A DNA stretch of 64,000 bases from Pseudobdellovibrionaceae bacterium (GTDB lineage Bacteria; Bdellovibrionota; Bdellovibrionia; Bdellovibrionales; JAMPXM01). A model generated the notes under the pieces. The model worked only from the letters and a program-made list of their open reading frames with translations, was not told the DNA's origin and did no database searches. Location: the NCBI GenBank assembly GCA_947462815.1, contig CANHQR010000001.1, positions 32,038 through 96,037 of the forward strand, in the 5' to 3' direction. Positions 31,484 to 59,124 of the stretch are shown piece by piece (within the stretch, counting starts at the first letter, position 1; each line of letters opens with the position of its first letter). Made by a program: the position numbers and the translations under genes.

Positions 31484-33036
31484 ATCCGCCGATTGTTGCC
31501 TTCCAGAATGTGTCGAAGCGCTATGGGAATTGTGTGTCTCTCTCCCAAGTTTCGGCGACTTTCGCCCCTGGGCAACTGCACGCGATCTTAGGTGAGAATG
31601 GAGCGGGAAAATCGACACTGATGAAGGTGCTCTTCGGGTTGGTTCGCCCGGATGAGGGTTCAATTTCCATTCAGGGAAGTACGAGATCATGGAGATCTCC
31701 AGCGGACGCCATTGCGGCGGGATTGGGAATGGTTCAACAGCACTTCACACTCGTGCCGTCACTCAGCGTGATTGACAACATTATGCTAGGTCGTGAGGGT
31801 GGGTGGCGATTGAACCGTGCGGCCGCTATTGCGGAACTTGAGGCAAAGTTGCCCGACGCGAGTTTGCGAATGAATTGGGATCGACGAGTTGAAGAGCTCA
31901 GTGTGGGTGAGCAGCAACGTGTGGAGATTCTCAAGTTGATCGCTCGTGACTCAAAAATCATGGTGCTCGATGAGCCCACTGCGGTGCTCGTCCCTCAGGA
32001 AATCGAGGCGCTGTTTACCTTGCTAAAGAAGCTACGCGATCAAGGTCGCAGCATTTTTGTGATCACGCACAAGTTATCCGAAGTGTTCCGTCATTGCGAT
32101 ACTTGGACTGTGCTTCGTTTGGGCCAGCTGGTGCAGCAGGGTGAAATTCGGGACACGTCGTTAGACGTCGTGGTGCGAGCGATGATGGGAGGCGAGCCGC
32201 CGCCGCCCATTCGACTCAATCCTCCTCGGGCAGAGATGAAGCTGTCTGAATTGCTGGAAGTTCGGTCGCTGACTTCTGGAAAAATTGGAAGAGGGGCCTT
32301 GCTCGATGTCAGTCTCAAAGTTCACGGTGGAGAAATCGTGGGCATTGCCGGAGTTGATGGCGCAGGTCAGTCCCTGCTTGTCGACTCGCTTCTTGGGCTT
32401 CATGAGTTTCACGGCGAAATTCTTTGGATGCAGCAAGCTCTGCGCGCTGGCCGGCGAGCGGACTGGGCTTTGATGAGTGAAGATCGACACCGGCAAGCTT
32501 TATGGATTGAAGAGTCCGTGCAGATGAATGCGGGTCTGGGCGTTGAAGTTCAGTTCTGTAGCTTTTCGAATTCGAAGACTCGAAAGACGTCGTTTCGAAC
32601 GGATCTATTGAGCCATTTTGAGGTACTTGATTTTGAACGATGGGGTCAGGACGTTGCCCGGTGGCTCAAGGAGTTTGACGTTCGTTTTCCCCATTTAGGT
32701 GAGCGAGTTTCACGGCTCTCGGGGGGCAACCAGCAAAAGTTGATTTTCGCACGAGAGCTAATGGGTCGCGATGTTCGTTTTGTGGTTGCCCATCAGCCTA
32801 CGCGCGGCGTGGATTTGGGTGCCATTCATCAGATTCATCAACGACTGGTCGAACTGAGAGACCGAGGTGTTGGTGTGTTGTTAATTTCAAGCGAACTCGA
32901 CGAGTTGATGGCCTTGTCGGATCGAATCATTGTCTTGGAGTCGGGTAAAGTAACCGCTCAATTCGATCGATGGTCAGAGAGCTCGCGACAGTTTGATCGA
33001 GCACAGATTGGCCGCGCCATGATCGGAGCGACGTGA
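31480..33036 (+). CDS. ABC transporter ATPase with two fused NBDs (CUT2/nucleoside type)
   Basis: The first NBD has GENGAGKSTL, LSVGEQQRVEI and VLDEPTA. The second has GVDGAGQS, LSGGNQQK and a degenerate Walker B. Confidence 0.9.
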   Translation: MNPPIVAFQNVSKRYGNCVSLSQVSATFAPGQLHAILGENGAGKSTLMKVLFGLVRPDEGSISIQGSTRSWRSPADAIAAGLGMVQQHFTLVPSLSVIDNIMLGREGGWRLNRAAAIAELEAKLPDASLRMNWDRRVEELSVGEQQRVEILKLIARDSKIMVLDEPTAVLVPQEIEALFTLLKKLRDQGRSIFVITHKLSEVFRHCDTWTVLRLGQLVQQGEIRDTSLDVVVRAMMGGEPPPPIRLNPPRAEMKLSELLEVRSLTSGKIGRGALLDVSLKVHGGEIVGIAGVDGAGQSLLVDSLLGLHEFHGEILWMQQALRAGRRADWALMSEDRHRQALWIEESVQMNAGLGVEVQFCSFSNSKTRKTSFRTDLLSHFEVLDFERWGQDVARWLKEFDVRFPHLGERVSRLSGGNQQKLIFARELMGRDVRFVVAHQPTRGVDLGAIHQIHQRLVELRDRGVGVLLISSELDELMALSDRIIVLESGKVTAQFDRWSESSRQFDRAQIGRAMIGAT

Positions 33037-37170: not shown

Positions 37171-37212
37171 GCTGTCCACCAAACTAACTGAGGGTGGGTC
37201 GGCGGGTCACAT

Positions 37213-37241
37213 AAAAAAAGGGTCGGCAAAAGCCAACCCTC
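37213..37241 (-). terminator. Rho-independent terminator downstream of the 224-aa gene
   Basis: On the minus strand the sequence reads GGGTTGGC-tttt-GCCGACCC followed by TTTTTTT. Seven of the eight stem positions pair. Confidence 0.55.
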
Positions 37242-37285
37242 TTCCTTTGTGGATGCCACTCGGCACCCCAACTCTTGTTTTGATC

Positions 37286-37960
37286 TTATCGGCAGTACTT
37301 ATTGATATCTTCAATACGAAGCGACACGCCTTTTTCACGTGCGAGGTCGCGATTCGCTTCGATGAGGGCTTCACCCCGGCTACGTCCTTGAGCGACGAGT
37401 TCGTTGGAGCGAGCCAACAAGAACGAAAGATTTGAGCGGAGGTCGGTGGACCATGTTGCCGCCTTGTTTCCGCCCGAAGTTGCCAGAGTCAAATAGGCTT
37501 GTTCAGCTTGACGAACAGGATCCATGGCCGCCAGGGCTTCCGCCGTCACGTCTGTGCGAACTTCGCGCATGTTGGCGAGGGCCTCGACGCGAGCTGCATT
37601 GAGCTCGGTCAGATCGCGGTTGTTCTGTTGGCCGATGATTTGTTCGATGGCTTGACGGACTTCCGCGTTGTTCGCCATTGCGGTTTGAAGTTCTCGTGAC
37701 TTTGCAGGAGACAGTCGTCCGACGTTCAGGTTGCGAACGAGTTCAGCAACACGGCCAGCACCCTCGGCACCACGACCTGTTCGAGCCGCTTCAACGCGTG
37801 CGGCTTCGGTTTCACGGCCACGAACGGCTTCAGGGCGTGTTTCTCGTCCACCGCGATTCGCGAGAGCCTCTTGGCTCATAACGCTGCAAACGGCCAGTGA
37901 CATCATCATGAGCTTGGTGGCCACGATCGATGCTTGTGTTTTGGTTACTTTCGCCTTCAT
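37286..37960 (-). CDS. Hypothetical exported alpha-helical protein
   Basis: The 224-aa ORF has GGAGG 6 nt upstream of the ATG and a signal-like LMMMSLAVCSVMSQEALA. It is Arg/Glu/Ala-rich and probably helical. I recognise no motif. Confidence 0.55.
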   Translation of the reverse strand: MKAKVTKTQASIVATKLMMMSLAVCSVMSQEALANRGGRETRPEAVRGRETEAARVEAARTGRGAEGAGRVAELVRNLNVGRLSPAKSRELQTAMANNAEVRQAIEQIIGQQNNRDLTELNAARVEALANMREVRTDVTAEALAAMDPVRQAEQAYLTLATSGGNKAATWSTDLRSNLSFLLARSNELVAQGRSRGEALIEANRDLAREKGVSLRIEDINKYCR

Positions 37961-38400
37961 AAAGCCTCCTCGAGTCGGTGCTCGAAACTTTCGCTCACGC
38001 CGTGAGCTTGTGAATCCAAATTCTGAAACTCAAAACTCTCGTGATCCTTCTCAAACGTCTCTGTTCTGTTCTCAAAGTGCTAATCTCAAATCCCATTATC
38101 AAATCCCAAGCCTGGAGGTCGGATGAGCGCTGAGGTGCCCAATCTGGTCACCTCCGCAGCTTAATTCGGCCTTGGGGCAGAGGCTCCATTCCTCGAGTAA
38201 ATTCCAAAATCTCTCGAGGACTTAGTGGCATCGCCTATAAACACTTCCCAACTCATCCGTTGGCGAGAAAGCATTCCTCGCCCAGCTGTGACCAAATCGG
38301 TCTTCTGCGTCTCTCCGAGGCGGCCTGAGGTCCAATTAAACGCCTCGTGGCCGATCAGTTCTTAGTCCGAGCTGCAGCTCTGCGTCCTTGCCCTGAACCA

Positions 38401-38465
38401 TTGCAAGATTTGGGTGCAAGATTTGGGTGCAAGAATTGGGTGCAAGATTTGGTCGCGAGAATCGA
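38401..38465. repeat. Tandem array with a 13-bp period (4 good copies plus 1 degenerate)
   Basis: I read this directly: ttgcaagatttgg | gtgcaagatttgg | gtgcaagaattgg | gtgcaagatttgg | tcgcgagaatcga. It lies about 50 bp downstream of the stop of the large ORF and about 440 bp upstream of the 224-aa gene. Confidence 0.9.
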
Positions 38466-38512: not shown

Positions 38513-41500
38513 TCAAAGACCGGGAACCTGAATACTGCGAACAATCCCGAAGTAGGAATCCATCTCGTCGGTGCAGCTCTTAAGATTCCTCAAGACCTGC
38601 GTCTGAACCGCCGCTTGAGGTGCGTCGCTTGCGACCCGAGCGCCCACAAAGGCCGTCAGCGCATCTTGTGCCTGTTGAACCCGCCCCTTCAATTCGTCGT
38701 AACGTTGCCGCGCCTCAATTTGTTTCGCATCGATGATCGATGTGTCGCCGACAAATCTTCCAAGCGCCCGCAGTTGCTGAAGGTAGGCCTCTGCGAGTCG
38801 ACCGTATTCTTGTCGAGTCTCTCCAGACTGCGAAACGTTCGCCGTTTTGGCGAGAACGACTGTGTAGAAGCGGGCTTCGTCTTCCAGCGAGGGCAAAGCA
38901 CCGAGAGCGAACTCGCGACCATTGTACTGACGGCGCTCCGTATTGGTCAGGGCGGGCAGATACTTCTCGCGGAGCACGCGGTGAAACTGCTGCCGGAAAG
39001 TGTTGAGCATGGATTGAACGTGGACGTCGACATGACGCTCCCACCATGTGTCGAAGGCGCTTGTCCAGTTGGGGTCAGCTTGCGCGGGTCGTGGTGTTGT
39101 GCCGACGATCTCGGATCGCATTCGATCGCGAACGAGCTCGAGGAAGCCATGATAGGTTTTTCCTTCCACAACGAACTGTGAGTTGTGAATGTCGAAGGTC
39201 GGTAAGTCGCGGTTATGGCCTCTTGGGAAAGTGTTGCAGATGTCGTAGTTGATCGGCTGAACCACTTGCGGAGGTCGGAACTGAGCGGCGAATCCAAAGG
39301 GACCCGTGATGAGGTTGTGTGGACCACGTCCTGGTAGCTGTCCATCTTGAGTCGGCCGCATCGTGGATTCAAAATGGCGATCCACTTCGATCATAGCTTC
39401 GCGATTGTTGGGATCAATGGACGGCGGTGTGCTGAGACCGAATCTGTGCAGAACAGAGTCCATCGTTGTACGCCGACTCGATTGAAAGAGACGAATTCGT
39501 TCTTCGGCGTTGGGATCGGCAGTTGGTCCGCAAACCATCGAAATCAGCAAGTAGTCGACCATAGACTGAGCGCGTGCTCGGCCAATACCCGAAGGGTGAT
39601 CTCGCTTGGTCTCTTGGGCAATGACGGCGGGATCGTCGTTGAAGGCCCGCAAGTAGGCCAGGCCTTCACGCAAAGGCTCGGGATCTCCCATGAGCAGTCT
39701 TAGCTTCATGTAGGGATTGTGCTCGGCGAGGCTCTCGTAGAGAGGCGACGGGTAGGGGATATGTCGATCTGACAAGGCTCGATCATTCTGAAGAGTCGTA
39801 CGGATTTGTGTGAGAGCTTGGCGGATCGCCTCTTCGCGAAGCCGCAGGCCGAGCTCATTACGCTGGGCCTCGGGAAGTGCCATGTACGAGGCCGCACTTT
39901 GGGGCGGAGGTAGGAATTGAGTCGCGGGAACCGCCGGATCCACCGCATCGAGATTTCGGAGAATTGAAGTGAGGGGCACACGCAGCGAACGCTCGCGCGC
40001 GCTTGTCCCTAAGCGCTGAAGGTAGTCGCGCAACCAACTTCGCGCGCGATTGAGGGCGTCTCGTGCGCCTTGCGAATCCGTACGTTGTTGGGGGTCAACA
40101 AACAACCCGTGAAGTGGACTTGCGACGTACAAGGGGCTGCGGTCTTGCGGTCGAATATTCGGCGTCGTCCGCTGCCAATGGATGTTATCAGCCATGTCTC
40201 GATAGAAGCTATAGGCATTCGCGTACATCGTGGAGAAGTCCGCGACTTTCTTCTGCCAGTTCGTATGAGCCGAATAGGCATCTTGGAGAGCGAAGTTTCG
40301 CCACTTCTTGGTTTTCTCAGCGTGCTTTTCCAGAAGCTTTTGCGGAGACATGCTCCGATAGCACTGAGCCGGCAAAGGAATGCCTCCCGCCATGAACATA
40401 TCGAGATGAGCATCGGCTTGGAGAGAATTGGGCTGCGTGCAATCCGGATCAATTTCGGCCGCAGGACGCCAACGCCAAGCTTGGGCCTCAGCTCGGCCGA
40501 TTTCATCCATGATCACGTTAAGGGAATCGGTGATGTCTTGTCCTTGCCGCCGACGTTCCCAAGGATTCTTAAGGTAGGGAAGAATCATGTGATTGATTTC
40601 CATGAAGACGAACACATTGGCGACGGTGATCGCGAAGCGCGCCCAAGGTCCACCCATGAAAGAGCCCAACCGCCAAGTGATGTTTAGGCCTCGAAAGACC
40701 ACAGGCAGGTAGCGCTCAGCTCCGCTACTGACGACACGACCAACGAGACCTGCAGCCCGCATCGTGGGATAGTTGACGAGATAAGCTTGAATGAAGGAGG
40801 TCGCGACCATCGAGAACAGATCGGGCGCGTAATCCATGAGCTTCTTCGAAATCGCCCAGTTCTCATACGCCTTTTCACAAGCGGTTTCGGCATCTTCAGG
40901 CTTCACGCTCCGAGAAACGAGAGACTTCGAGCACGTCTGCAAATCCGGATCATTGGCCATCTCGGTGATGACACTTGAAACCGTCATACCGGCGACTAGA
41001 CCCATCGGTCCCACAAGTGGTGCAAAGCCCCTCTGCAGACGTGTCGGACCAGCAGGTACGGCTTGCACTTGAGCGGCCCATGGCGCAGCTTGCGGAATGG
41101 CGAGTCCGGGCGCGACCATCTGCATGCGCTGGGGAACGTTGATCCGGTAGTCCCCAATCGGAGCTCGCAACGGATCGTAAGCTAAGCCTGCGGATTGAAG
41201 AAAGCTAGTGGAAGCGCGGCTGGCGGCCAAGAATCCGATGAAACTCACATGAGCGACCGGATCAAGTATGCTTCGGTCGATGAAGTTCTTCAGCGCGATG
41301 GGATCATTCTCCATGTGATTGCGAGCATTCAGCGCCAAAGCTAAGTTAAACGCGACCAGTTCGGCGGGGATGTCGGTTGCAAAATGCCGAGCTCGATTGG
41401 CGAAGCGATCGCGTTCTTGGCGTTGCGCATTTTGCTGTTGTCTAAACTGCTCATCAACCCGGCGTCTCAGGTTACGAGGCGACCACTGCCGCAGCTCCTG

Positions 41501-41854
41501 ACTGGGAAGCGTGGGGATATACACGCGAATGAGCTCTTGAGTTTCAGGATGGCGAAATTCAAATGCAAAGCGTTCGTTATTGGCCGGCTGTTGTCTCTGT
41601 AGATTTTGTTCCTGCGGACCTGACGTTGCGGCTGCACCCTGAGCCTGAGCTGAAGTTGTCCACGCCAGGAGCCCGAGTGTCCCCATCGCGATCAGTCTCT
41701 TCGTGACGAAGTTTGGAAGAGTCTTGAGAAATTTTCCGATGGAAGCACGAAAGGTCGAATGAGGTTCCGCAGGAAGAGATGCGATGGCGGCGGTCTCGAG
41801 TACCGCAACGACGTGATTCTCACTGAGATTCCGATCGGACGTCGACAATGACAT
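38513..41854 (-). CDS. Large hypothetical membrane/exported protein (about 1,113 aa) with no recognised domain
   Basis: This is a long uninterrupted ORF; the track gives 38513-41890. I prefer the ATG at 41854, preceded by GGAGGA. A hydrophobic anchor or signal (LIAMGTLGLLAWTTSAQAQG) lies near residue 55, with several further hydrophobic segments in the first ~450 aa. A large soluble C-terminal region follows. Confidence 0.7.
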   Translation of the reverse strand: MSLSTSDRNLSENHVVAVLETAAIASLPAEPHSTFRASIGKFLKTLPNFVTKRLIAMGTLGLLAWTTSAQAQGAAATSGPQEQNLQRQQPANNERFAFEFRHPETQELIRVYIPTLPSQELRQWSPRNLRRRVDEQFRQQQNAQRQERDRFANRARHFATDIPAELVAFNLALALNARNHMENDPIALKNFIDRSILDPVAHVSFIGFLAASRASTSFLQSAGLAYDPLRAPIGDYRINVPQRMQMVAPGLAIPQAAPWAAQVQAVPAGPTRLQRGFAPLVGPMGLVAGMTVSSVITEMANDPDLQTCSKSLVSRSVKPEDAETACEKAYENWAISKKLMDYAPDLFSMVATSFIQAYLVNYPTMRAAGLVGRVVSSGAERYLPVVFRGLNITWRLGSFMGGPWARFAITVANVFVFMEINHMILPYLKNPWERRRQGQDITDSLNVIMDEIGRAEAQAWRWRPAAEIDPDCTQPNSLQADAHLDMFMAGGIPLPAQCYRSMSPQKLLEKHAEKTKKWRNFALQDAYSAHTNWQKKVADFSTMYANAYSFYRDMADNIHWQRTTPNIRPQDRSPLYVASPLHGLFVDPQQRTDSQGARDALNRARSWLRDYLQRLGTSARERSLRVPLTSILRNLDAVDPAVPATQFLPPPQSAASYMALPEAQRNELGLRLREEAIRQALTQIRTTLQNDRALSDRHIPYPSPLYESLAEHNPYMKLRLLMGDPEPLREGLAYLRAFNDDPAVIAQETKRDHPSGIGRARAQSMVDYLLISMVCGPTADPNAEERIRLFQSSRRTTMDSVLHRFGLSTPPSIDPNNREAMIEVDRHFESTMRPTQDGQLPGRGPHNLITGPFGFAAQFRPPQVVQPINYDICNTFPRGHNRDLPTFDIHNSQFVVEGKTYHGFLELVRDRMRSEIVGTTPRPAQADPNWTSAFDTWWERHVDVHVQSMLNTFRQQFHRVLREKYLPALTNTERRQYNGREFALGALPSLEDEARFYTVVLAKTANVSQSGETRQEYGRLAEAYLQQLRALGRFVGDTSIIDAKQIEARQRYDELKGRVQQAQDALTAFVGARVASDAPQAAVQTQVLRNLKSCTDEMDSYFGIVRSIQVPGL

Positions 41855-42241
41855 CTCATCCTCCGCCTTCGGGGCGCCTTCGGTGCGCATTAGGGGTGAG
41901 GCGGCGTTCGTGCCGCTTCAACTCAGATCCAATGGTCGCAGGGTGCAAGCCAAGTGCTAGGAATCATGACGTGGTTGAGATTTTCCCGATGTTCGGATTC
42001 TGGGCGAACCTGATCCAAAGCTATTGAAAATGCGGGGATTTTTGAGGTGTCAAAAGACTCAACAGAGCCGACCGGGGAGCTTGTGGGTGACGATTTTTGT
42101 CGATGGCCGCTTTGTGCGGTCTGCTGTTGAAAAGTTGAACGTGTCGAGCTTCAAAAAAGACGCACCAAAAAACCAACTAGAGAGCCGACCGCAATGATGG
42201 GCCTACCCTCTCAGATTTTCCCGAAGCATCGACGATGAGGC

Positions 42242-43399
42242 CTAGCGCTGATTGCGTCGACCACTGCCCCGTCGGCCTTGTCCCTGTTGAGGACGATCGG
42301 CGTTCGGCTGTTGAGCAGGCTGTGCGGTGGGAGGCTCCATGGGTAGAGCGCGAACAGGTTCAACGACGTTCACAGCCATCGGTGTCGCCTCTGAGGGAGC
42401 GCTGGACTCCGAGCCATTGGCTTTGGGCTGATAAGTTTCCATACCGAAAATGATCACTCGTTTGAGTGGCCGATCTGTGGGACTCGTCGGGACGAGGGCA
42501 ATCTTTTTGATGGTTTCCCAGCCCTCGATGACTTCACCGATGATGGTGAATCGGTCGTCAAATTCTGGCAGCGGTGCCAGAGAAATGAAGAATTGGCTAC
42601 CGTTTGAATCCTTACGATTGGATGCAGCCGCGCCCTCTTCGATCTGCTGAGGGGCCATCGCGACGACGCCGGGACGATTGAAGCGTGCGCCCGGTGAAAA
42701 CTCATCCGGCACCGTGAAGCCCGGTCCACCTCGTCCTGTGCCGAAGGGGCAACCACACTGAATCAAGGTTCCTCGGATGACTCGATGACAAGATAGTCCC
42801 GTGTAGAAGGGGCGTGTCACCTTTCGGCCCGAGCGAATATCGACAAACTCTTTGCGCCCGAGCGCTAACTCAAGAAACGAATAAACATTCTGTGGCGCGA
42901 TCAAAGGGTTGAGTTGAATGACAAAGTCACCCTCGGAGGTGCTGACGACGATTCTAGGTTTAGTGATCGAGGACTGACTCGCCGAGAACAACTCGCTCTT
43001 TGGCTCTGGAGAATTCACGATCTGCGAAGGAGGAGGATTGAAGGCCGGAGAATTCGATGAGGGCCCAGCCTGAGGCGGAGGTGTTGGCAGCGCCACTTGT
43101 TGTGCATTACCGGGGAAGTTTCCGCCAGCGCCACCACCCAGCGCTTGAGGCACAGGCGTTTGTGCCGGGCCTTGCGTCGGCGGCAGAACACCTCCAGGTA
43201 AGCCAGGCGTTGTTGGTGGAGGCAGATTCGGTGAAAACTGTGGCGGGACCTGTGCGGAACTTTGTGCAGCTAAGAAAAACTGCATGCCGGCCATGAGCGC
43301 AACAAGTTGAGACCTCAAAACGCGAATGGGAAACACAGAGCGATGAGCAAGCAAGCCGACTCGCGCAGAATTTTTTTGGGGCTTCGACTCTATCTTCAA
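42242..43399 (-). CDS. Cyclophilin-type peptidyl-prolyl isomerase with a Pro-rich N-terminal extension and a C-terminal tail
   Basis: The core motifs are FHRVI-like CHRVIRGTLIQCG, GTGRGGPGFTVPDEF and SNGSQFFISL. The N-terminal region of about 120 aa is rich in P, Q and G. Confidence 0.85.
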   Translation of the reverse strand: MKIESKPQKNSARVGLLAHRSVFPIRVLRSQLVALMAGMQFFLAAQSSAQVPPQFSPNLPPPTTPGLPGGVLPPTQGPAQTPVPQALGGGAGGNFPGNAQQVALPTPPPQAGPSSNSPAFNPPPSQIVNSPEPKSELFSASQSSITKPRIVVSTSEGDFVIQLNPLIAPQNVYSFLELALGRKEFVDIRSGRKVTRPFYTGLSCHRVIRGTLIQCGCPFGTGRGGPGFTVPDEFSPGARFNRPGVVAMAPQQIEEGAAASNRKDSNGSQFFISLAPLPEFDDRFTIIGEVIEGWETIKKIALVPTSPTDRPLKRVIIFGMETYQPKANGSESSAPSEATPMAVNVVEPVRALPMEPPTAQPAQQPNADRPQQGQGRRGSGRRNQR

Positions 43400-43422
43400 G
43401 TCTGATCTCCGTTCAGCTCCGC

Positions 43423-46110
43423 CTATTTTCTTTCCGCTTCGATGGCCGCCAATCGGGACTCGGATTCTCGTAGGCCATCAATTAGGAAACTCTTCAGCCT
43501 CGTCCTCATATTCAAACTCGAGCGATCGTCTCGAACACCTGCCGTGCTTCGATGATCTTCCTCGCGCAGCCCCAGTCTTCGTGCAACTCGGTCGGTTTCC
43601 TGGGCTCGGAAGTTGATCTTCGAATTGCTCACATCTCCCGTCAGACGATGCCACTGTTCCACAAGCCGCGTTCTGCGGTAGATGTCGAGAAGTCGAGCGG
43701 AATGTGTCGACCAAACGCTCGAAGTCCTCTCTAGAAAGTGAATCATGCTCTGTGTCGAGGGCTCAAGCTCGAACTGCTCGGAGGCTTCGTGAAGCCGAAG
43801 GCAATCGATTTGCGCGGCAAACTCGACAGATGCGAGACCTCCACGCACTAGCTTAAGGTCGAGGTCAAAAGCGTTTGCGTCGATTGGCTTGAAGAGTTGC
43901 CGACTGATCGAGAGAACTTGCTCGTGATCCGCAATGGTCCATGGCCGAGAGCGACAAATCTTCGATGGGGAGAAGTCGAGTTTCACTCGAAGTTGTTCTT
44001 CGGCAAGCAAGCGAGCCCGAAGCCAACTCTGTCGTTCCCAGGCCTCGGCCTGCGTGAGCAAGTGTTGATGTAACTGATCATGCTCGACCAAAATTGGTCC
44101 GGCATGACCGCTGGGTCGCAAGCGAAGATCAATGGAGTAAAGTTGGCCTCCTCGGCGCGATTCGGTGAGGCGGTGAATGAAGCGTCGGGCGAGCTTCTGC
44201 TGTGCTGCTTGAGGACTGCCTCGAACAAGGAAGACGAAATCCAAATCGGACTTAGCGCCGAACTCTCTCCCCCCCCACTTTCCGAGCGCGATCAGACCAA
44301 GTGGTTCAATACCCATCTCGTTGGCGCAGGTGAGCATAGCGTCGGTGGCGATTTGGTCGGCAAGAGAGGTGAGCTTCTGCAGATAATTTTCGAGGTTGTT
44401 GTTAGCAGCAAAGTCCAAAAGCGCGAGAAGTTCTCCGACGAGTCGTCGTTCTGCAAGGGCTTCAAAAGCCTGGTCGGCGAGCGCAGGATCTCGGGGGATC
44501 TCGGCATCCGCGCGAAGAATAATGGAGTCCAAGAGTTCGGGTCGCCCCGCGAGTGTGTGTCCAGCCCAGGGTGAGACGCTGAGTAAAACAGCGAGACTCT
44601 TAATGAGACTTGGTTCGGAATTTAGAAGAGAAAAGAAGCTCGCCTTAACGCGGGTCGAGCGCACGAAGTCCGTCAGCAGAGCGAGGCCCAAATCCAGGTC
44701 GCCACCAGCGTTTTGCAAAGCCTTCAGAAATGACGACAGAAAGGTTCGTCGGGCCCGCTCATCGCGTTCGGCGCGACGACTCTTGGCGTGAAGCTGTTCG
44801 AGTTTTTCAAGGCACTCGCTTGCCACGCGCTCACTGAAACCTAACTCGACAAGCTTATTGACGTCGGGAATCTCGAGATTCTCATCGCGCCTAGCCGGAA
44901 AGGCCCGTTCCGCGAGCTGAACGACTTTGGCGGCTCGGGCACGCAGATCATGAGCTGAATAGGCGCCCGTTGCACCACTTCGAACTATATATTCGGAAGA
45001 GTCTTCCCGAACTTGAAGTCGGTTCTCGATGCCTCGATAATGCCAATAGGTTTCATGCAGTAACTTTGATTCTTCGTCATCGAGAAGTTTTGCATCCCGC
45101 AGTTTGCGAATCGCTTGTGAGGTCGATTTAGCATCATGACTGGCCAAAGCCCTTGTTCGGCCGCCGTGCGTGATCTGCAGAGCATGAATGAAGAGTTCGA
45201 TATCGCGAATTCCACCTGGATGTAACTTTAAGTGAAAGCGTCCGTCGGCATGTGGGGGGTACTCGGCCCGTATTCGACTGAGCAAGAGGCGAGTTTCGTC
45301 AAAGACCGTATAGTCCAAATGCCGAGGAAAGCAGAAGTTCGTCAGGAGAGACTTCAGTTGCAACTCGAGTTTCTGCGGATCGATGACGAAACGATGTCTC
45401 ACCCAAGCGAGGCGCTCCCAGAGCTCACCATGATAGCCGAGATGGTTTTCAAGAGAGGACAGTTGCAAGACAGCTGGTGCGGAGCCGCCGCCCGGTCGAA
45501 GTCCCAGATCGACGCGATGGCAGAAGCCGAAATTTGTGTTTTCACTCAGAAGTTTCACAAAATCCTGGGCGGCCTTCTGGTCGGCTCGAATGTCATCTTC
45601 CGATGATCGGTCCGGAGACACGAGGACGAGATCGATATCGCTTGAGATATTGAGTTCGCGAGATCCGAGCTTACCCATCGCAATGACGGCCACATCCTTG
45701 AAGCCGGAGAGGTGATGAGCTTCGCGGATATGGCAATCTGCCGCTTGACTCCAATCCGCGCAGATTTTGTCATCCCCATTTCGCAACTGCTCTGGCTCTA
45801 AGGGCGGCTCAGCCGTCTGAGCTTTTGTTCCATTCTGCTCGTCGAGTTTCATCAGTTCAAAGGCCGCTGAGATCCAAGCGACATGGCGCTGCACGCGAAG
45901 TCGTTCGGAATCCGTGACGGCTTGTTGTTCTCGACAAATTCTGACGAGCCGACTCGCGGCCGGCGAAAAAGCGGCAAGCGAATGAACCTCAGCGTCGGTG
46001 AGGCGCCAAGGTAGCTTGGATTGGAGGTCCTCCACATCACTCAAAGGCCGGCGACCAGTGGGGTTTTGAGTAATCGTTTTGGTCGTAGCTGATTCGTCGT
46101 TCGACTTCAC
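43423..46110 (-). CDS. glnE: Glutamine synthetase adenylyltransferase/adenylyl-removing enzyme
   Basis: The 895-aa ORF has two nucleotidyltransferase modules (MGKLGSRELNISSDIDLVLV and LGKWGGREFGAKSDLDFVFL). The annotated start overlaps the tolB 3' end by 74 nt, so the true start may lie further downstream. Confidence 0.85.
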   Translation of the reverse strand: MKSNDESATTKTITQNPTGRRPLSDVEDLQSKLPWRLTDAEVHSLAAFSPAASRLVRICREQQAVTDSERLRVQRHVAWISAAFELMKLDEQNGTKAQTAEPPLEPEQLRNGDDKICADWSQAADCHIREAHHLSGFKDVAVIAMGKLGSRELNISSDIDLVLVSPDRSSEDDIRADQKAAQDFVKLLSENTNFGFCHRVDLGLRPGGGSAPAVLQLSSLENHLGYHGELWERLAWVRHRFVIDPQKLELQLKSLLTNFCFPRHLDYTVFDETRLLLSRIRAEYPPHADGRFHLKLHPGGIRDIELFIHALQITHGGRTRALASHDAKSTSQAIRKLRDAKLLDDEESKLLHETYWHYRGIENRLQVREDSSEYIVRSGATGAYSAHDLRARAAKVVQLAERAFPARRDENLEIPDVNKLVELGFSERVASECLEKLEQLHAKSRRAERDERARRTFLSSFLKALQNAGGDLDLGLALLTDFVRSTRVKASFFSLLNSEPSLIKSLAVLLSVSPWAGHTLAGRPELLDSIILRADAEIPRDPALADQAFEALAERRLVGELLALLDFAANNNLENYLQKLTSLADQIATDAMLTCANEMGIEPLGLIALGKWGGREFGAKSDLDFVFLVRGSPQAAQQKLARRFIHRLTESRRGGQLYSIDLRLRPSGHAGPILVEHDQLHQHLLTQAEAWERQSWLRARLLAEEQLRVKLDFSPSKICRSRPWTIADHEQVLSISRQLFKPIDANAFDLDLKLVRGGLASVEFAAQIDCLRLHEASEQFELEPSTQSMIHFLERTSSVWSTHSARLLDIYRRTRLVEQWHRLTGDVSNSKINFRAQETDRVARRLGLREEDHRSTAGVRDDRSSLNMRTRLKSFLIDGLRESESRLAAIEAERK

Positions 46111-47479
46111 CGTCGACGCTCACAGTATAGAGTTGCTTTCGTCCTGTACGGTTGCTGACAAAAAGAATGTGACGCCCGTCGGGAGAGTAAGAGGGGTCTT
46201 CGTTGTCCGCCATTTTACCGTTGGGTTTTCGGGCTGAAGTCAGCCGAAGCATGTCGGACCCGTCGGCTGCAACAGTGAAGAGATCGAAATGGCCCTTATC
46301 ATAGCCTGCAAAGACGAGGCGTTGACCATCCGGAGACCAGCGAGGTGCTGAATTGTAAGTGCCTGCGATCGTGATCCGACGAATATTCGAGCCATCGGCG
46401 TTCATGATGAAGATGTGAGGTCTTTCATTGCGGTCGCTTGAAAACGCGATCTGCGATCCATCGGGACTCGCGGCGGGCTCGACGTTCATCGCTCCGCGTG
46501 GGCCATTCGTGAGTCGTTCGAGCCTCCGTCCATCGATCGACATGCGATAGATATCTGGATTTCCCGCATTCGAAATCGTCAGGAGAAGATTGCGGCCATC
46601 TGGAAAAAAGCTCGCGCCGGAGTTGAGGCCGGGCCTGTAGGAGACGAGTTGGCGCTGACCTGTCGATGGATTGTAAGTGAACATATCGAGGTTTCGCGTT
46701 TTCCGAGCAGGGTGGTAGGCATAGGCGCTATAGGCGAGAGTCTTACCATCAAAAGACCAGGCCGGAGAAACTGTGATCGACTTGTGGGTCGTCACTTGAC
46801 GGGCGTTCGCTCCATCCCAATCCATGATGAAGATTTCCTTTTTGTCTTTTCCTGCGGTTCGGCTCACGGCGATTCGCGACAAAAACATACCGCGAAGTCC
46901 GGTGAGCTCTTTGACGACATCATTGGCAAAGGTGTGGGCCACGCTGCGCACATCGGCCATGTTGCCGCGATAAGTCCGGCCGAGGACGAGCTTGGCCTGA
47001 GGTACATGGTAAAGGTAAGCGTCCATCACCACTTCACTACCGGTCATGCGATAGCCTACGCGAACTAGAAACTCAGTGCCGATTTGTTTCCAAGCCGGGA
47101 AGGTGAAGCCGCCCGCTTCTTGAGGTGAAGGTTTCAGACCGACCTTTGCGGGGTCTTCAAGAAAGGCGTCGGGCTTGATGAAGTCAAAGAATCCGCTGAC
47201 CTCCATATCTTGCCGGAAGACATCGTAGAGCTCTTTACCGACCTTGAGATGCTGTGGAGAGGCGGCGGCCACGCCCGTGAGTTGAAAGGCGGGTAATGCC
47301 ATTAAGCTCTTTTTGAACTTGGCGTCGGTGATTCGTATGTAGGCGCCTGAACCCGCGCCCTCTTGGGCCTTCGCCGCCGATCCAAGAAGAGAAAGTCCAC
47401 AACACAAGATCAAGTGGGCTGTCATCAGTTGGAATTTGCGCATGTTCATTCTCCTCGGGTTCGACGCGACTCGAAGCAT
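46037..47479 (-). CDS. tolB: Tol-Pal system beta-propeller protein TolB
   Basis: A signal peptide and a TolB N-domain are followed by repeated propeller blades (SPAWSFDGKTLAY, SPDGSQIAFSSDR, WSPDGQRLVF, YSPDGRHILFVSNR). Confidence 0.9.
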   Translation of the reverse strand: MLRVASNPRRMNMRKFQLMTAHLILCCGLSLLGSAAKAQEGAGSGAYIRITDAKFKKSLMALPAFQLTGVAAASPQHLKVGKELYDVFRQDMEVSGFFDFIKPDAFLEDPAKVGLKPSPQEAGGFTFPAWKQIGTEFLVRVGYRMTGSEVVMDAYLYHVPQAKLVLGRTYRGNMADVRSVAHTFANDVVKELTGLRGMFLSRIAVSRTAGKDKKEIFIMDWDGANARQVTTHKSITVSPAWSFDGKTLAYSAYAYHPARKTRNLDMFTYNPSTGQRQLVSYRPGLNSGASFFPDGRNLLLTISNAGNPDIYRMSIDGRRLERLTNGPRGAMNVEPAASPDGSQIAFSSDRNERPHIFIMNADGSNIRRITIAGTYNSAPRWSPDGQRLVFAGYDKGHFDLFTVAADGSDMLRLTSARKPNGKMADNEDPSYSPDGRHILFVSNRTGRKQLYTVSVDGEVERRISYDQNDYSKPHWSPAFE

Positions 47480-47493
47480 AACTTCCTATTACC

Positions 47494-48291
47494 TCATCGG
47501 GTTGTGGAGGGCTCAAGATCTAAGAGCAAACCGCTCGTGGAAAGTAGACCTGCTAGACTGGATGGAGGTTGGGGAAAGGGCACAATTGAATCGATGGCCT
47601 GAAGAGCCGACTCGTCGAATACAGAATTGCCACTGGATTGTAAGATTGCCTTTTTGATTACAGCGCCTTGCGCATCGATGTGCACGAGGACTTTCACCTT
47701 CAGACCATTCTTCGCCAAGTACTTGGGCGGTCGCCATGCGGTCCGAATTTTTTGTTCCAGCGAGGACAGATAGGTGTCGTGATCAAGTCGAGTCAAACCT
47801 GAGAGCGAGCCACCTCGGGATACTTGATTTCCTTGTACGGGTCGAGCTTGGGCCATCGCGGCCGCGGCCTTGGCCGCGGCATCAGCTCGGGCCTGTCGCT
47901 CGAGCTTGGCAATCGCTTCCAATTTTTTGAGTGCAGCAGTTTGATCCTGGCGGAGCTCTCTCGCCGAGCGTTCTCTGGGAGTTGGTCCCGGCGTCGGCTT
48001 GAGGACAACCACGGCCGGCGGCGGAGGAGGAGGGGGAGCCTGCTCGCGCGGCGGGAGTTGAGCTGGCGGTGGTGGGGGCGGGGGTTCGGCCTGCGGGGGA
48101 GGAGGAGCGGGTGGAAGTTCCGGCGATTTGTCGGGCAAACCCACGATGTCCACGCGAATCGCGGATTCGATTCGCAGGGGTTCGTTGGGAAAGAAGAAGG
48201 CCTTCAGGGTGAGCGCTGCCACGACGACCACGTGAGCGCCTAAGGAAATACTCAATGAGTTTCCTAAACCCTGCGCGAATGGATCTTTCAA
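47494..48291 (-). CDS. tolA: TolA/TonB-family energy transducer (TolA by context)
   Basis: An N-terminal TM and a poly-Pro tract (PPAPPPPQAEPPPPPPP) precede an Ala/Lys helical segment. The C-terminal TonB_C-like domain reads KVKVLVHIDAQGAVIKKAILQSSGNSVFDESAL. Confidence 0.7.
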   Translation of the reverse strand: MKDPFAQGLGNSLSISLGAHVVVVAALTLKAFFFPNEPLRIESAIRVDIVGLPDKSPELPPAPPPPQAEPPPPPPPAQLPPREQAPPPPPPPAVVVLKPTPGPTPRERSARELRQDQTAALKKLEAIAKLERQARADAAAKAAAAMAQARPVQGNQVSRGGSLSGLTRLDHDTYLSSLEQKIRTAWRPPKYLAKNGLKVKVLVHIDAQGAVIKKAILQSSGNSVFDESALQAIDSIVPFPQPPSSLAGLLSTSGLLLDLEPSTTR

Positions 48292-48719
48292 GGCCCACCC
48301 TTTGGCAAAGTCACAAGACCAATATTCTGAATTCCCGCCGCGCGAATTTCGGCCATCGCCTCGGCAACGAACCCATAGTCAACGGCCTTGTCGGCCTGAA
48401 GATAGATTTGTTTGTTTGATCGCGTCGCGAAGATCGCCTGAAGGCGCTTGCGGAGATCAGCGATGGGGATCGGCTTATCAGCGACGGTGATTCGCTTAGA
48501 CTTGCTGATTTGGATCACAAACGGCTCGTCATTCGTGCTGAGGCCGGTGGCGGCGGTCTCGGGTAAATCGACCTCGAGCCCTTGTTGCATCATGGGTGCG
48601 GTGATCATGAAGATGATCAGCAGCACCAGCATCACGTCCACGAGTGGTGTGACATTGATCTCACTCATCACCATGCGGCTCTTGCCGCCGTTGGAACTTC
48701 CTCCGCCGCTCATACCCAT
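48288..48719 (-). CDS. tolR: TolR (ExbD/TolR family)
   Basis: The 143-aa ORF has SEINVTPLVDVMLVLLIIFM. It has a 4-bp overlap with tolA. Confidence 0.85.
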   Translation of the reverse strand: MGMSGGGSSNGGKSRMVMSEINVTPLVDVMLVLLIIFMITAPMMQQGLEVDLPETAATGLSTNDEPFVIQISKSKRITVADKPIPIADLRKRLQAIFATRSNKQIYLQADKAVDYGFVAEAMAEIRAAGIQNIGLVTLPKGGP

Positions 48720-48720
48720 T

Positions 48721-49443
48721 TCACTGGTCCTTGAAGAAGTTGCGCTTTGCTACGTTCAAAAAGTCAGAACTGAAGCTGGTGAGATCCATTTCAATCCGCC
48801 GAACTTGGCCAACGAAATAGTTGTAAGCCGCTGTCGCCGGCAGGGCGGCGAACAACCCCACGGCTGTCGCAAAGAGCGCCTCTGAAATACCTGGTGCGAC
48901 GACCGCAAGGCTGGCCGAGCCGGCCGAAGCAATTTGCTGGAACGAAGTCATAATCCCAAGGACCGTCCCCAAGAGACCAATAAAAGGCGCGGTACTTCCT
49001 GTTGTCGCCAAGAAGTTCAATCGGGATTCAGCTGAAGCGATTTCGTTGTCGATCGATTTGCGAAGCGATCTCTCCAAGTTGTCGATACCAGTGAGTCGAT
49101 GACTCCCGCCGATCTCGGCCTCTTTGCCTCCGAATGCACTCTCGGCGATTCTCTGCATTTCCGCGAAGGCGACAGCGAAGACTCGAGCCACATTGGAATC
49201 TTCGTGTTCCCGCACCTTCGCGAACATATCTTCCAAAGAGGGAGCCCGCCAAAAGGCTTCAATGAACTTCGCGTTGGCGGCACGCACTTTATTGAATTGG
49301 CGACTCTTTGTCAGAATGATCGCCCAAGAGATCACCGAGAGAAGAATCATCACCAGCAGAAGGGCTTGGACCAACGGACCGGCGTTGAGAACTCCGTCCA
49401 AGACTCCGGCTTTCACTGCAACTTTGGCCTGCATTCCACCCAT
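48721..49443 (-). CDS. tolQ: TolQ (MotA/TolQ/ExbB family)
   Basis: The 240-aa ORF has three TM helices, with LATTGSTAPFIGLLGTVLGIM and ALFATAVGL. Confidence 0.9.
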   Translation of the reverse strand: MGGMQAKVAVKAGVLDGVLNAGPLVQALLLVMILLSVISWAIILTKSRQFNKVRAANAKFIEAFWRAPSLEDMFAKVREHEDSNVARVFAVAFAEMQRIAESAFGGKEAEIGGSHRLTGIDNLERSLRKSIDNEIASAESRLNFLATTGSTAPFIGLLGTVLGIMTSFQQIASAGSASLAVVAPGISEALFATAVGLFAALPATAAYNYFVGQVRRIEMDLTSFSSDFLNVAKRNFFKDQ

Positions 49444-49524: not shown

Positions 49525-50508
49525 TCATTCGGTCAAAAGCGATGGCAGAATCTCGGTCGAATTCAGAAGAACACCATCGACCTGCTGCTCGAGGAGGCGT
49601 CGCGCTGTGGCGACATCCGACGCTGGACCCCAATAAACCTTCAGGCGTCGTCGTCGGGCTTCTTCGATGAGTGAGCTGCGAATGCGAGGCCGACCTGAGT
49701 TGAGAGGCTCCTCGATCGCGGAGACCACGGCATCGGCTTTGAGCTGCGAAAGTGCGGCGAGGCCAAATTGAGAGAGCATCTCCAGTTGCAGAAGTGTGGC
49801 TTGGCTTGTGCCGAAAATTCCGGCGGCGCGAGCCTCCCGGAGCGACTTCAGGATGCCATCGCTTTCCGAATGAAACACCACGTGTGATTGCGACAGCTGG
49901 GAGGCGCTTGTCGTCGGGGAGTCGACAACAATTTCGAGGACTCGAGCCTCGAGACCTGGCCGTCGAGAAATCAAGTTTAACAGAAGAGGCGGGGGATTTT
50001 GTGTGCCGGCGAGTTCTCGGGAGTAGAGCTCGGCGAACTCGGGCAAAGTCATGAGACCCGTTTTTCGGCACTCATCGGTGAGTGCGATCTCAACGGGCTT
50101 CGGCGGGCGGCCTTCGACGGTCGGGCGGCTCAGGAGTTCCTGACGAGAGAGGATCGCCTCGCGCTCGCCATTAAAACGCACATCGAGCCAATAACCAAAG
50201 CTCCATGGTGTTTGCGCCGCGGACTGAGTTTTCTGGAGCTCACGCACGCGGGAGAGGCTGGACGAGAAGTCCGCTGCCGTGTCGGGTGTGCGCAATCTCA
50301 ACCAGAGAATGCGGCGTTGGTCGGCGTGGATTTCGCGAAAAAGGGGGTGATCAAAGGGGGGGCGCAAGGGTTCCGATTCGGCTTTGTACTTGAGGAAAAT
50401 CCAGCCTGCAGAGCACAGAAATAAGACGATGCTGAGGACCTGGATGAGGGAACGAAGCGCGCTAGGTCTGTTTGATAAATTATCGATATCATTCATTAAT
50501 TTTAACAC
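49525..50508 (-). CDS. Hypothetical membrane-anchored protein, possibly with a degenerate glycerophosphodiester-phosphodiesterase-like fold
   Basis: The 327-aa ORF has an N-terminal TM (LIQVLSIVLFLCSAGWIFL). The layout WLDVRF...TLPEFAELY...LLLNLISR...LKVYWGP...QVDGVLLN is reminiscent of GDPD TIM barrels, but the catalytic His residues are absent. This is very tentative. Confidence 0.35.
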   Translation of the reverse strand: MLKLMNDIDNLSNRPSALRSLIQVLSIVLFLCSAGWIFLKYKAESEPLRPPFDHPLFREIHADQRRILWLRLRTPDTAADFSSSLSRVRELQKTQSAAQTPWSFGYWLDVRFNGEREAILSRQELLSRPTVEGRPPKPVEIALTDECRKTGLMTLPEFAELYSRELAGTQNPPPLLLNLISRRPGLEARVLEIVVDSPTTSASQLSQSHVVFHSESDGILKSLREARAAGIFGTSQATLLQLEMLSQFGLAALSQLKADAVVSAIEEPLNSGRPRIRSSLIEEARRRRLKVYWGPASDVATARRLLEQQVDGVLLNSTEILPSLLTE

Positions 50509-56410: not shown

Positions 56411-57097
56411 TTAGCGCGATAAACCATCGCGTCGCGAGTCTTGGGGCCTTCTCGTATCGGTTCTATCTGCTCCTGCGGGATCTCGCTCTGACGATGAGAT
56501 CGGCAAATCGAACTGCGAAAGCTGACCGACGGCTTGACCATTGATTTCTCGGTAAACGTGAAGCACGACCGGTAACTCCATCGCCCGCATATCCTTCCCG
56601 TTCGAATCCAGATCCCACTCCACTTCGATGCGCAGGGGCCAGCTCTGCCCAGCTTGGAGCGGCGGGATGCGACCTTCGATTTGAGCTTCTCCCGGTGTCA
56701 ACGATGTGTTCGCCAGGCGGACTCCTTGAGGTAGAATCCATGTGAAGCGTTGTTCACCAATCGCCCGCCGGGGAACAACTAATGTCGCGGCGACAAATCG
56801 AGCGACCGAGGCGGCCCTAGAGGTTGTACCTCGTGAGGTATCACTCACTTCGCCTTGTGCTTCGGCAGGTTCGTCTTGAATCTGCAAGAGGCTCAACTGC
56901 GGAGAATGCTTTTCGGTTCTGTGCGGAGGTTCGGAGGGAGGGGCTCTTCGTCCTCGATGGTCGCGAGGATGTGATGTTGATGGGTCTTGAGAGCTCACTG
57001 AGATCCACCAAGCGATGGCATAACTCACCAAACACATGGCCGCGAGAATGATGAGCGAGCGATGAGATCGAAGTGCGGTTCTTACTTTCTCGGACAT
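56411..57097 (-). CDS. Hypothetical membrane-anchored protein, coupled to the upstream metalloprotease-like gene
   Basis: The 228-aa ORF has an N-terminal TM (LIILAAMCLVSYAIAWWI), a disordered basic/Pro segment and a probable beta-rich C-terminal part. Its start overlaps the stop of the 680-aa gene by 16 nt. Confidence 0.45.
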   Translation of the reverse strand: MSEKVRTALRSHRSLIILAAMCLVSYAIAWWISVSSQDPSTSHPRDHRGRRAPPSEPPHRTEKHSPQLSLLQIQDEPAEAQGEVSDTSRGTTSRAASVARFVAATLVVPRRAIGEQRFTWILPQGVRLANTSLTPGEAQIEGRIPPLQAGQSWPLRIEVEWDLDSNGKDMRAMELPVVLHVYREINGQAVGQLSQFDLPISSSERDPAGADRTDTRRPQDSRRDGLSR

Positions 57098-59124
57098 CTT
57101 TGCTCACCATTGAGTTTGAGTTGATAGAGCACAGAGGCCTGCGGGTCCGCTTTGGTGCGGACGGGTAGTCGCCGAGCGTCGATCCTCAGCTGCAAAAGAT
57201 AAACGCCGGCAGGCAGCGCAACGCTTAAACCGCGAATCCTGCGCTCGAAACCGGGGGCATCTGTTGAGGAAATGAGACAGTTCGGTTCCTGGCAGTCTTG
57301 AGAGTTCACGGTCGACTTCGCCAGAAGAAATCGATCGATGCCGATTCGATGACCAGGTGCCCAAAGATAGAGTTGGGTATCCACCAGCGATTCCTGTGCG
57401 AAGTGAAGTTCGGCATTGAGAGTGCCACCGGGATGATGGACTTCAAGAAAATCATTGTTCATGTTCCAATCGAGACTCGACCAATCACCCCAGTCCCAGG
57501 GCATGCGGCGGGCGAACATCTTCGTCGGCGAGCAAGTCGTATCGGCAAGGAGAGGCGTCGCGTATTCGCCTTCCCCATGAAGCATGACTTCCCGTTGCAA
57601 ATGCGAGGTCCAATCCGAGGCGTTGGGCCTTAAGCTATGGCGTTTGTGAAAGCTCGCGAATGTGGGAAAGCCCTCTCTCTCTTGATGGCTGAGATGGCGG
57701 GATTGAAAGGCCAACCAGATTTCTACGAAACCAGATTGTTTGAGAGCCGAGTGCAAAAGACGGCTCACGGCGAATTCGCGAAAAATTCCCTCGCCCCTGG
57801 CGTCTGGATCTGGGAGGTCGCGCTCGGGATGCTCGAACGACTCATGAATGAGGGCGCCCGCGCAGAGAGAGGGACATTCCGGAGTCCCGTACGAGTCCCG
57901 GTAGTAGTCTCGGCCCGTGATGGCGGCTTGCAAAAAGTTGGCAAAGCCCTCGCTCCATGCGAGGCGTGGATCAATGAGAGAATCGCCGTCATGCGCGCCG
58001 CCTGGCGATGCGGTATGACCGAAGAAATCCTCGAGGAAGTGAGCGTACTCGTGAAGTACGACGGCGTCGTCAAAGTGATCCATGTCGCTGGAGACCGTGT
58101 TGCCCCGAAGTCCGCCTGAAATGTAGATCGAGGCGGAACCGCGAATGTAGTAACTGGCTGAGCTCGTTGATTGAGGTGACTCGTTGGGGCTTCGACCAGG
58201 TCGCCAGTAGATTTGTGCTCGAGGTGCGCGTTCAAATGGCTTACAGGCGGGCCAGTTTGGATCGCAACCTTGAGTTTGGGAGCGAAGATAGTCTTGCGCA
58301 CGCAATGTGAGTTCCAGCATATGGAAGGCGCCGCCGAGAAGATCGCCGCGAACCTTGGCTCGAAGTCGAAGTGGAGTTTCATGATCAGAGGCGTCGGCGA
58401 TCAACGCGTAAGTTCGATTGCTGTCCGGCGAATCGAGAATAGAAGTTGAATTTCGATGATGGTGGGCGCGCGCTCGGACTTCGAGGCGCCAGGATTGTGC
58501 CGAAGCTGGAATGGACACGGAGAAGTGGCCCAAGTCGTCGGTGGTACCGCACTGAAGAGTTTGACCGTTGGGATCGAGTACGGCCACTTCTGCCAACCGA
58601 ATTGGATGAGGGTGAGGATTTCGTGTGGGCATTGGGAGGCCTTGATGGCGAGTGACTTCCCATTCTTGGCCGATCGGAGGAGCCGTGAAAAGATGGGCGC
58701 CGGCTCGATAGACATCCCAGTCATTGGGAAATTGCGAAGCGAGTGCGGCCAGCACGTCTTGAGATTTGGACCATCCGCTCACAGGAGGCGCCGCACGAAA
58801 TTGGAGAACTTGCCCCGAGGATGAACGTACTTCGATGTCGACTCCGATTTGCGCGTCCCATGGAGTCGGTGTGGACCATCGAAAAGCCGCATCCGTGGGG
58901 AGACCATTACCGTCGCTCCGAAACTCGTAATGAGCTGTGCCCTCCACGTTCCGAGATGGGCCGAGAATTGCCTGAGATTGTGCACAGTAAGGAGCCTCAG
59001 CTTTCGAGGCGAACTGTGACTCGTCTTCAAAGGTTCGTGACGAGTCGCACGCCACCTGAAAAATGGCGCTAAAGCCGACGAGCATTAGACTGTGAATTCG
59101 GCCGTTTCGAAAGATCCATGGCAT
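57082..59124 (-). CDS. Gluzincin-like (clan MA) zinc metalloprotease lipoprotein, putative
   Basis: The lipobox-like sequence is FSAIFQVAC. A CarboxypepD_reg-like segment (VAVLDPNGQTLQCGTTDDLGHFSVSIP) is present. HEYAH (HExxH) is followed 29 residues later by WSEGFANF, like the M1-type NEGFA third-ligand Glu. The C-terminal segment resembles a pre-peptidase C-terminal domain (GVYLLQLRID...YQLKL). Confidence 0.6.
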   Translation of the reverse strand: MPWIFRNGRIHSLMLVGFSAIFQVACDSSRTFEDESQFASKAEAPYCAQSQAILGPSRNVEGTAHYEFRSDGNGLPTDAAFRWSTPTPWDAQIGVDIEVRSSSGQVLQFRAAPPVSGWSKSQDVLAALASQFPNDWDVYRAGAHLFTAPPIGQEWEVTRHQGLPMPTRNPHPHPIRLAEVAVLDPNGQTLQCGTTDDLGHFSVSIPASAQSWRLEVRARAHHHRNSTSILDSPDSNRTYALIADASDHETPLRLRAKVRGDLLGGAFHMLELTLRAQDYLRSQTQGCDPNWPACKPFERAPRAQIYWRPGRSPNESPQSTSSASYYIRGSASIYISGGLRGNTVSSDMDHFDDAVVLHEYAHFLEDFFGHTASPGGAHDGDSLIDPRLAWSEGFANFLQAAITGRDYYRDSYGTPECPSLCAGALIHESFEHPERDLPDPDARGEGIFREFAVSRLLHSALKQSGFVEIWLAFQSRHLSHQEREGFPTFASFHKRHSLRPNASDWTSHLQREVMLHGEGEYATPLLADTTCSPTKMFARRMPWDWGDWSSLDWNMNNDFLEVHHPGGTLNAELHFAQESLVDTQLYLWAPGHRIGIDRFLLAKSTVNSQDCQEPNCLISSTDAPGFERRIRGLSVALPAGVYLLQLRIDARRLPVRTKADPQASVLYQLKLNGEQRCPRK

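Follow-up and report, generated by a model that had tools for sequence, protein, structure and literature searches.

What kind of protein is encoded by the longest gene in this stretch of Pseudobdellovibrionaceae DNA? The stretch (the window; 64,000 nucleotides, positions 32,038 to 96,037 of contig CANHQR010000001.1) is a portion of a 611-kb metagenomic scaffold. A preliminary description had presented the product of the open reading frame (ORF) at 38513..41890 on the minus strand as a large membrane-anchored or exported orphan with no recognisable domain. With about even confidence, we read it as a functional Sec-exported, soluble, all-α protein of ~118 kDa with three disulfides, located in the periplasm or envelope and serving there, with the small protein encoded by the next gene (the partner), as a non-enzymatic structural or binding module. 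That the protein is exported, disulfide-bonded and soluble is predicted; a physical complex with the partner and a role as an envelope scaffold, possibly tied to the neighbouring Tol system, are speculative.

The ORF is a real gene under strong purifying selection. In the comparison with its orthologue from Bdellovibrionaceae bacterium UBA2339 (locus L006; 87% identical at the protein level), the ratio of nonsynonymous to synonymous substitution rates (dN/dS) was 0.03 (dN = 0.07, dS = 2.4, the latter saturated), with values of 0.015–0.039 across the four 200-codon blocks in which dS could be estimated. The frame was intact in 12 of 12 orthologous loci from independent assemblies, and the GC content is even throughout the region. 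These three results exclude a spurious ORF, a pseudogene or an assembly artefact, an explanation that is also at odds with the confident structure model described below and to which we assign a negligible probability.

The coding sequence was assigned to 38513..41854 (minus strand, 1113 residues). An in-frame ATG at 41890 extends it to 1125 residues and is not conserved. The true start was placed at 41854 because the L006 protein begins at the equivalent Met behind GGAGG, without a counterpart of the upstream ATG; its start MSKSTST aligns with MSLSTS and its equivalent Shine–Dalgarno site reads GCGGAGGGCGAG-ATG. The strong ribosome-binding site described previously was recovered as GGAGGA at 41859..41864 (minus strand), 4 nt before the ATG (41854-41852). 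An imperfect 11-bp tandem (CGCCTTCGGGG x3) at 41864-41896 spans the ATG at 41890 and reaches into the Shine–Dalgarno site; its overlap with the non-conserved ATG accounts for the 12 extra codons of the apparent ORF. With either start the ORF is the longest in the window, as had been stated, the next being GlnE (895 residues). The spacers on both sides were also confirmed (upstream, 387 nt from the ATG at 41854 or 351 nt from that at 41890; downstream, 552 nt); no standout sigma-70 promoter or intrinsic terminator was found around the gene. The C-terminal 650 residues had been called rich in Arg, Gln and Trp, which is correct for Arg (9.7%) and Gln (6.9%) and incorrect for Trp (1.1%).

Homologues were sought by word-indexed searches and, exhaustively, with HMMER among 1.84 billion cluster representatives. 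The former returned only four, three and six matches (the four at 35–37% identity), and a metagenome locus scan gave one short locus only. The latter gave 468 proteins with E <= 1e-3, 299 with E <= 1e-10 and 74 with E <= 1e-30, each representing a cluster at 50% identity. The word-indexed searches thus badly under-sampled the family, the true size of which is visible only by the exhaustive search, and the label of orphan has to be dropped. Members are mostly 900–1300 residues long and are defined (profiles A4/A7) by this length, a signal peptide, three covarying Cys pairs, a W-R...W patch, M-x-C-G-P and F-x-P-P motifs and a W-W near residue 938. All of these are present in the window protein, which scores 985 bits against the A4 profile. 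No paralogue of the gene was found in any fetched locus. The eight matches in species-representative genomes were all from metagenome-assembled genomes (MAGs) of Bdellovibrionota, and 20 of 20 representatives looked up were metagenomic or MAG-derived and either nameless or annotated 'hypothetical protein'. The members with assignable taxonomy all belong to Bdellovibrionota, the most distant ones being unplaced.

The absence of a recognisable domain was borne out for the protein and its relatives alike. In Pfam the best match of the large protein had E = 0.22 (11 bits against a cut-off of 25) and was taken as noise; NCBIfam gave no family at E <= 1; and none of 38 diverse relatives, the longest included, matched Pfam at E <= 1e-3. 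Searches of PDB sequences with phmmer and with an 80-sequence profile gave E >= 0.0066, the matches being short and coiled-coil-like. The preliminary description had named two findings as decisive against it: a clear match to a characterised family and a disrupted frame in relatives. No such match was found in Pfam, NCBIfam, PDB or BFVD and no such frame in the 12 loci, and the core claim, that of an uncharacterised large exported protein, survives both.

Export is suggested by the leader (41642..41854, minus strand). Its 71 residues comprise a long n-region, the basic segment KTLPNFVTKR, the h-region LIAMGTLGLLAW and the c-region TTSAQA, and a signal peptidase I (SPase I) site is predicted between AQA and QG after LIAMGTLGLLAW-TTSAQA. 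The signal or anchor helix reported earlier, LIAMGTLGLLAWTTSAQA followed by QG, is present, and the features of a Sec/SPase I signal can be read from the window protein. Cleavage at this site would leave a predicted mature all-α protein of ~1042 residues (38516..41641, minus strand; ~118 kDa, pI ~9). The leader, exceptionally long in the window orthologue, is poorly conserved and is the only fast-evolving part of the protein in the comparison with L006 (39% identity, with indels, against at least 84% in every later 100-column block). The succession of basic n-region, h-region and small residues at -3/-1 (AXA type) was seen in 12 of 12 orthologues, so that the earlier term 'exported' appears justified, and 59 of 80 members satisfied a crude signal-peptide heuristic. 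The leaders of the large protein and of the 224-residue partner both lack Cys and hence a lipobox for SPase II. A twin-arginine (Tat) motif is likewise absent, the n-region having K-R rather than R-R and the Arg residues of L006 being single and separated.

The length of some leaders (71 residues in the window, 48 in L006) would suit a protein of the inner membrane held by an uncleaved N-terminal anchor and exposing a large periplasmic domain. Against such an anchor, the canonical AXA-type site lies behind the h-region in every orthologue and most leaders have 25–40 residues. The same explanation can be framed as a multi-pass protein, and the preliminary description had proposed anchoring through additional hydrophobic segments. 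The two segments quoted there are present: APLVGPMGLVAGMTVSSVI, a Gly-rich helix at 40967..41023 (minus strand; residues 278–296 of the 1113-residue form), and FAITVANVFVFMEINHMIL at 40580..40636 (minus strand; residues 407–425). In the window sequence alone their hydropathy peaks at 1.56 and 1.65, which is what favours membrane insertion. As a multi-pass protein we would have accepted one with several uncharged helices of ~20 residues, conserved across the family with a Kyte–Doolittle hydropathy over 19 residues (KD19) of at least 1.6 and consistent in sidedness. The family departs from this in hydropathy, charge and Cys positions. The mean KD value is 1.07 for the first helix, with 1% of members reaching 1.6, and 1.18 for the second, with 10% of members reaching 1.6 and ~1.8 charged residues per segment.

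The Cys residues bear on both compartment and topology. Three pairs covary among 80 members: C308/C326 (40877..40933, minus strand; both present in 76, one in none, neither in 4), C472/C498 (40361..40441, minus strand; 66, 2 and 12, respectively) and C775/C873 (39236..39532, minus strand; 73, 1 and 6, respectively). Covariation of this kind points to three disulfides and therefore to an oxidising, extracytoplasmic compartment. The first pair sits between the two hydrophobic helices and the other two pairs follow them, which argues that neither helix spans the inner membrane. We infer that both are buried core helices, and anchoring through them is contradicted by the position of the Cys pairs on both sides, the sub-threshold hydropathy, the charges carried family-wide and the compactness of the model. 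An inner-membrane protein of either form is accordingly considered unlikely.

A structure model (m3f0c8f772b2c) was calculated with AlphaFold (AF2) from 80 sequences; with five sequences only, the mean predicted local distance difference test score (pLDDT) was 45 and the model was unusable. With 80 sequences the pLDDT rose to 84.5 and the predicted template-modelling score to 0.80. The predicted chain forms a single compact body, nearly all of it long α-helices with four small β elements, and the low-confidence parts are restricted to the leader (residues 1–89, pLDDT < 50) and two loops. The Gly-rich hydrophobic helix lies within model helix 272–301 (pLDDT ~90) and the second within a 55-residue helix (403–457). 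Internal repeats were rejected, hhalign self-comparison being negative. In whole-chain Foldseek searches neither the PDB (best E = 0.05, template-modelling score TM <= 0.09) nor BFVD (best E = 9e-3, TM = 0.06) yielded a significant match; the top entries were generic long-helix proteins (vinculin, MukB, YaxA/XaxA, talin and tape-measure proteins).

The polar/aromatic patch with the highest conservation in the family is W518-R519...W533 (40256..40303, minus strand; consensus KWRxFxLxxAxxAHxNWQ), in which W518, R519 and W533 are conserved in 90, 99 and 100% of 80 members, respectively. C775 belongs to a nearly invariant M-x-C-G-P motif, in which C775, G776 and P777 are each at least 91% conserved. 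Phe, Trp, Pro, Gly and Cys dominate the near-invariant positions, and the large protein is therefore probably non-enzymatic. An enzyme that has escaped recognition, such as a periplasmic lyase, hydrolase or transferase with an envelope polymer or lipid as its substrate, would build its active site from invariant polar residues. D227, Q274, S293, D302, K338, R519 and N713 are invariant among the 24 members of the Tol-linked subfamily, R519 being nearly so family-wide, and genes for a cyclophilin and a PAP2 lipid phosphatase lie nearby. Several of the conserved Asp residues, however, are in D-P motifs and may be helix caps, the positions conserved across the whole family are mostly structural, and neither an enzyme family in Pfam or NCBIfam nor a PDB fold was matched. 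An enzymatic function is thus held to be rather improbable.

The gene had been said to stand alone. It belongs instead to a block of conserved synteny that includes a likewise conserved partner gene (37286..37960, minus strand). The 224-residue partner product has a signal peptide, a charged linker rich in Arg, Glu and Ala, and a helical domain, and its C-terminal Cys is conserved. The earlier reading of this product as exported, helical and devoid of a family match was upheld, no Pfam or NCBIfam family being found. Partner homologues lie immediately or almost immediately downstream of the large gene in L003, L004, L006-L011, L013 and L016, and in L002 after one inserted gene. They also occur in L018 and L020, in which the identity of the large protein falls to ~28%, and probably in L017 (hhalign probability 84%, E = 8e-6). 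Within the clade, all 14 informative loci, the window among them, carry the partner; L005 and L012 end too early to judge. An intermolecular disulfide between the partner's C-terminal Cys and C1094 of the large protein was considered and is unlikely, as this seventh Cys is not conserved even in close relatives. In L002 (13358-22955) the inserted gene encodes an unrelated exported protein of 192 residues, and the pair is followed by a 1013-residue double bpMoxR/AAA_5 ATPase and a 1288-residue transglutaminase-core protein.

In the window's clade the usual gene order is tolQ-tolR-tolA-tolB-glnE-cyclophilin-BIG-small-PAP2, where BIG is the large gene and small the partner; in L018, BIG comes directly after tolB. 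The linkage is frequent and not obligatory, as the orthologues in L002, L003 and L004 are away from tol. No Pal or CpoB gene was found after tolB in the window or in the related loci examined, and a crude regular-expression search around the window's tolB detected no gene with the NRRxE motif of OmpA-C. A literature search on TelA (discussed below) or Tol-Pal in Bdellovibrio retrieved nothing relevant.

An envelope role is preferred because the genes around the pair, for Tol, a periplasmic cyclophilin and a PAP2 lipid phosphatase, are connected with the envelope. In the sequence of events that we favour, Sec would export the large protein out of the cytoplasm, oxidative folding would lock it via three disulfides, the soluble product would reside in the periplasm or envelope, and it would act there with the small partner as a non-enzymatic scaffold or binding module in envelope biology. 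Several considerations weigh against this account. The 71-residue leader of the window orthologue could serve as an uncleaved signal anchor; the polar residues invariant in the Tol-linked subfamily could build an unrecognised active or ligand site; and the fold search compared the full-length model (1113 residues) with PDB and BFVD, so that domain-level similarities may have escaped it. Co-transcription is not evident, since an upstream spacer of 300–550 nt precedes each of the two genes, and the association with tol may reflect an inherited gene order because glnE intervenes.

A more far-reaching proposal would have the two proteins form a periplasmic complex peculiar to the lineage, with a disulfide-locked all-α fold not seen before, which works with Tol in the genomic place of Pal and CpoB. 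It might, for example, tether or remodel the outer membrane when the cell divides or invades prey, and the paralogues linked to TelA and AAA+ genes would then be a second, energised version of the envelope module. We regard this as a long shot.

The TelA link was found in distant members of the family. In L019, which is far more distant, a 641-residue exported protein is encoded directly after the family member and is followed by a large AAA+ protein. Residues 1–222 of the 641-residue protein match the entire partner profile (E = 1.7e-13) and residues 324–611 are TelA-like, with a score below the Pfam cut-off (26 against 30 bits). In L015, TelA and AAA+ genes adjoin the family member; the partner module is undetectable there, and the L015 TelA protein was rejected as a partner homologue (hhalign probability 1.5%). 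PF05816 is carried by these neighbours in L015 and L019 only, neither the large protein nor the 224-residue partner matching it. The two loci (L019 7001-15508 and L015 1285-10838) together show TelA-like proteins of 619–641 residues and AAA+ ATPases of 973–1055 residues.

The lineage itself raises the question of an offensive function. As predators, the Bdellovibrionota attract interest as living antibiotics, and hypothetical proteins make up a large share of their envelope and predation machinery. The large protein might be a secreted, membrane-active α-helical effector against prey (pore-forming or lipid-binding), in which the hydrophobic helices, hidden while the protein is soluble, would insert into a target membrane and the small protein would be the second component or a chaperone. 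The two conserved helices of moderate hydrophobicity, the first being Gly-rich, the long-helix architecture and a two-gene layout resembling that of bipartite α-helical pore-forming toxins would fit such a function, and YaxA and XaxA were the sole thematically suggestive Foldseek entries. These matches (6ek7 and 6gy8; probability 0.15–0.20, E = 0.9–2.3, TM <= 0.15, 174–199 columns, root-mean-square deviation > 26 Å) are, however, not significant and do not amount to a ClyA-type fold. The hydrophobic helices carry charges family-wide, and a single-copy gene in a housekeeping syntenic block, conserved to ~28% identity with a dN/dS of 0.03, is typical of core genes and not of arms-race effectors. 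A secreted effector is consequently judged quite unlikely, and a resident envelope scaffold or binding module is retained as the preferred function.

The spacer between the two genes contains a conserved non-coding block (38132..38300, minus strand; 169 nt), which is 77% identical to its counterpart in L006 (13410-13578), where the flanks are unalignable and coding dS is saturated. Its RNA fold has a z-score of -3.6 with two compensatory pairs; no Rfam match was obtained. A small ORF was rejected, as all six frames contain stops and 3-nt periodicity is lacking. The block may be a 5' leader, a regulatory element or a small RNA, possibly for the partner gene. The 13-bp tandem array noted earlier in the same spacer was confirmed (TGCAAGATTTGGG x3.9, 38402..38452, 61–111 nt past the stop codon); it is not conserved in L006 and is therefore probably a neutral local repeat. 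A match to the Brucella small RNA BSnc120 in Rfam at 37207-37282 (minus strand; 28 bits against a gathering threshold of 114, E = 0.002) was treated as noise; it falls in the 103-nt spacer between the partner and PAP2 and is probably a chance hit or a terminator-like hairpin.

Further features of the surroundings were recorded. At 42242-49443 of the window, the genes behind tolQRAB are glnE and one for an exported cyclophilin whose linker is long and Pro/Gln-rich, in place of pal and cpoB; the related loci, L017, L018 and L020 among them, likewise have no OmpA-C (Pal-like) gene after tolB. In L017, L018 and L020 a motB-motA-flbD cassette on the opposite strand lies between the partner and PAP2 (L017 11777-13544, L018 11286-13194 and L020 11207-12953), an insertion absent from the window's clade. 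Three more ORFs of the window, all on the minus strand, had no Pfam match at E <= 1e-3: 57082-59124 (680 residues), 56411-57097 (228 residues) and 49525-50508 (327 residues), the last immediately upstream of tolQ.

Large uncharacterised families are common in under-studied phyla. Here an apparent orphan becomes a defined family of at least 468 clusters with a structure model, a predicted location, diagnostic motifs and disulfides and a partner gene, specific enough for curation, for example as a new Pfam entry. By exclusion from Pfam, NCBIfam, PDB and BFVD it is new at the family and fold level; a new kind of system is not thereby demonstrated. One structural comparison is with vinculin and the talin rod domains, from eukaryotic cytoplasmic proteins that share the packing of long helices and gave the best whole-chain or local Foldseek entries. 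As these matches are insignificant (vinculin, E = 0.05, TM = 0.07; talin R13, E = 3.9, 136 columns) and the proteins eukaryotic and cytoplasmic, the resemblance is attributed to generic helix-bundle geometry. Toxins of the ClyA superfamily (YaxA/YaxB and XaxA/XaxB) are similar in their long helices, in the hydrophobic segments of a soluble exported protein and in the use of two genes, but neither sequence nor fold similarity to them is significant, and the large protein is three times larger, is probably disulfide-bonded, and has housekeeping synteny and strong purifying selection.

The TelA family (PF05816) comprises helical toxic anion resistance proteins of unknown mechanism. The likeness to it consists of the fusion of the partner module to a TelA-like domain in L019 and the TelA gene adjoining the family member in L015, whereas the large protein and the 224-residue partner lack a PF05816 match and the L015 TelA protein lacks a match to the partner profile. 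Pal and CpoB (YbgF) are the Tol-Pal accessory proteins encoded after tolB in the classical operon. BIG and small differ from them in having no OmpA-C or TPR domain in a Pfam scan and no lipobox, in that glnE and the cyclophilin gene usually intervene, and in that several orthologues (L002, L003 and L004) are not beside tol; they resemble them in the placement of the pair downstream of tolQRAB, directly after tolB in L018, and in their predicted export to the periplasm.

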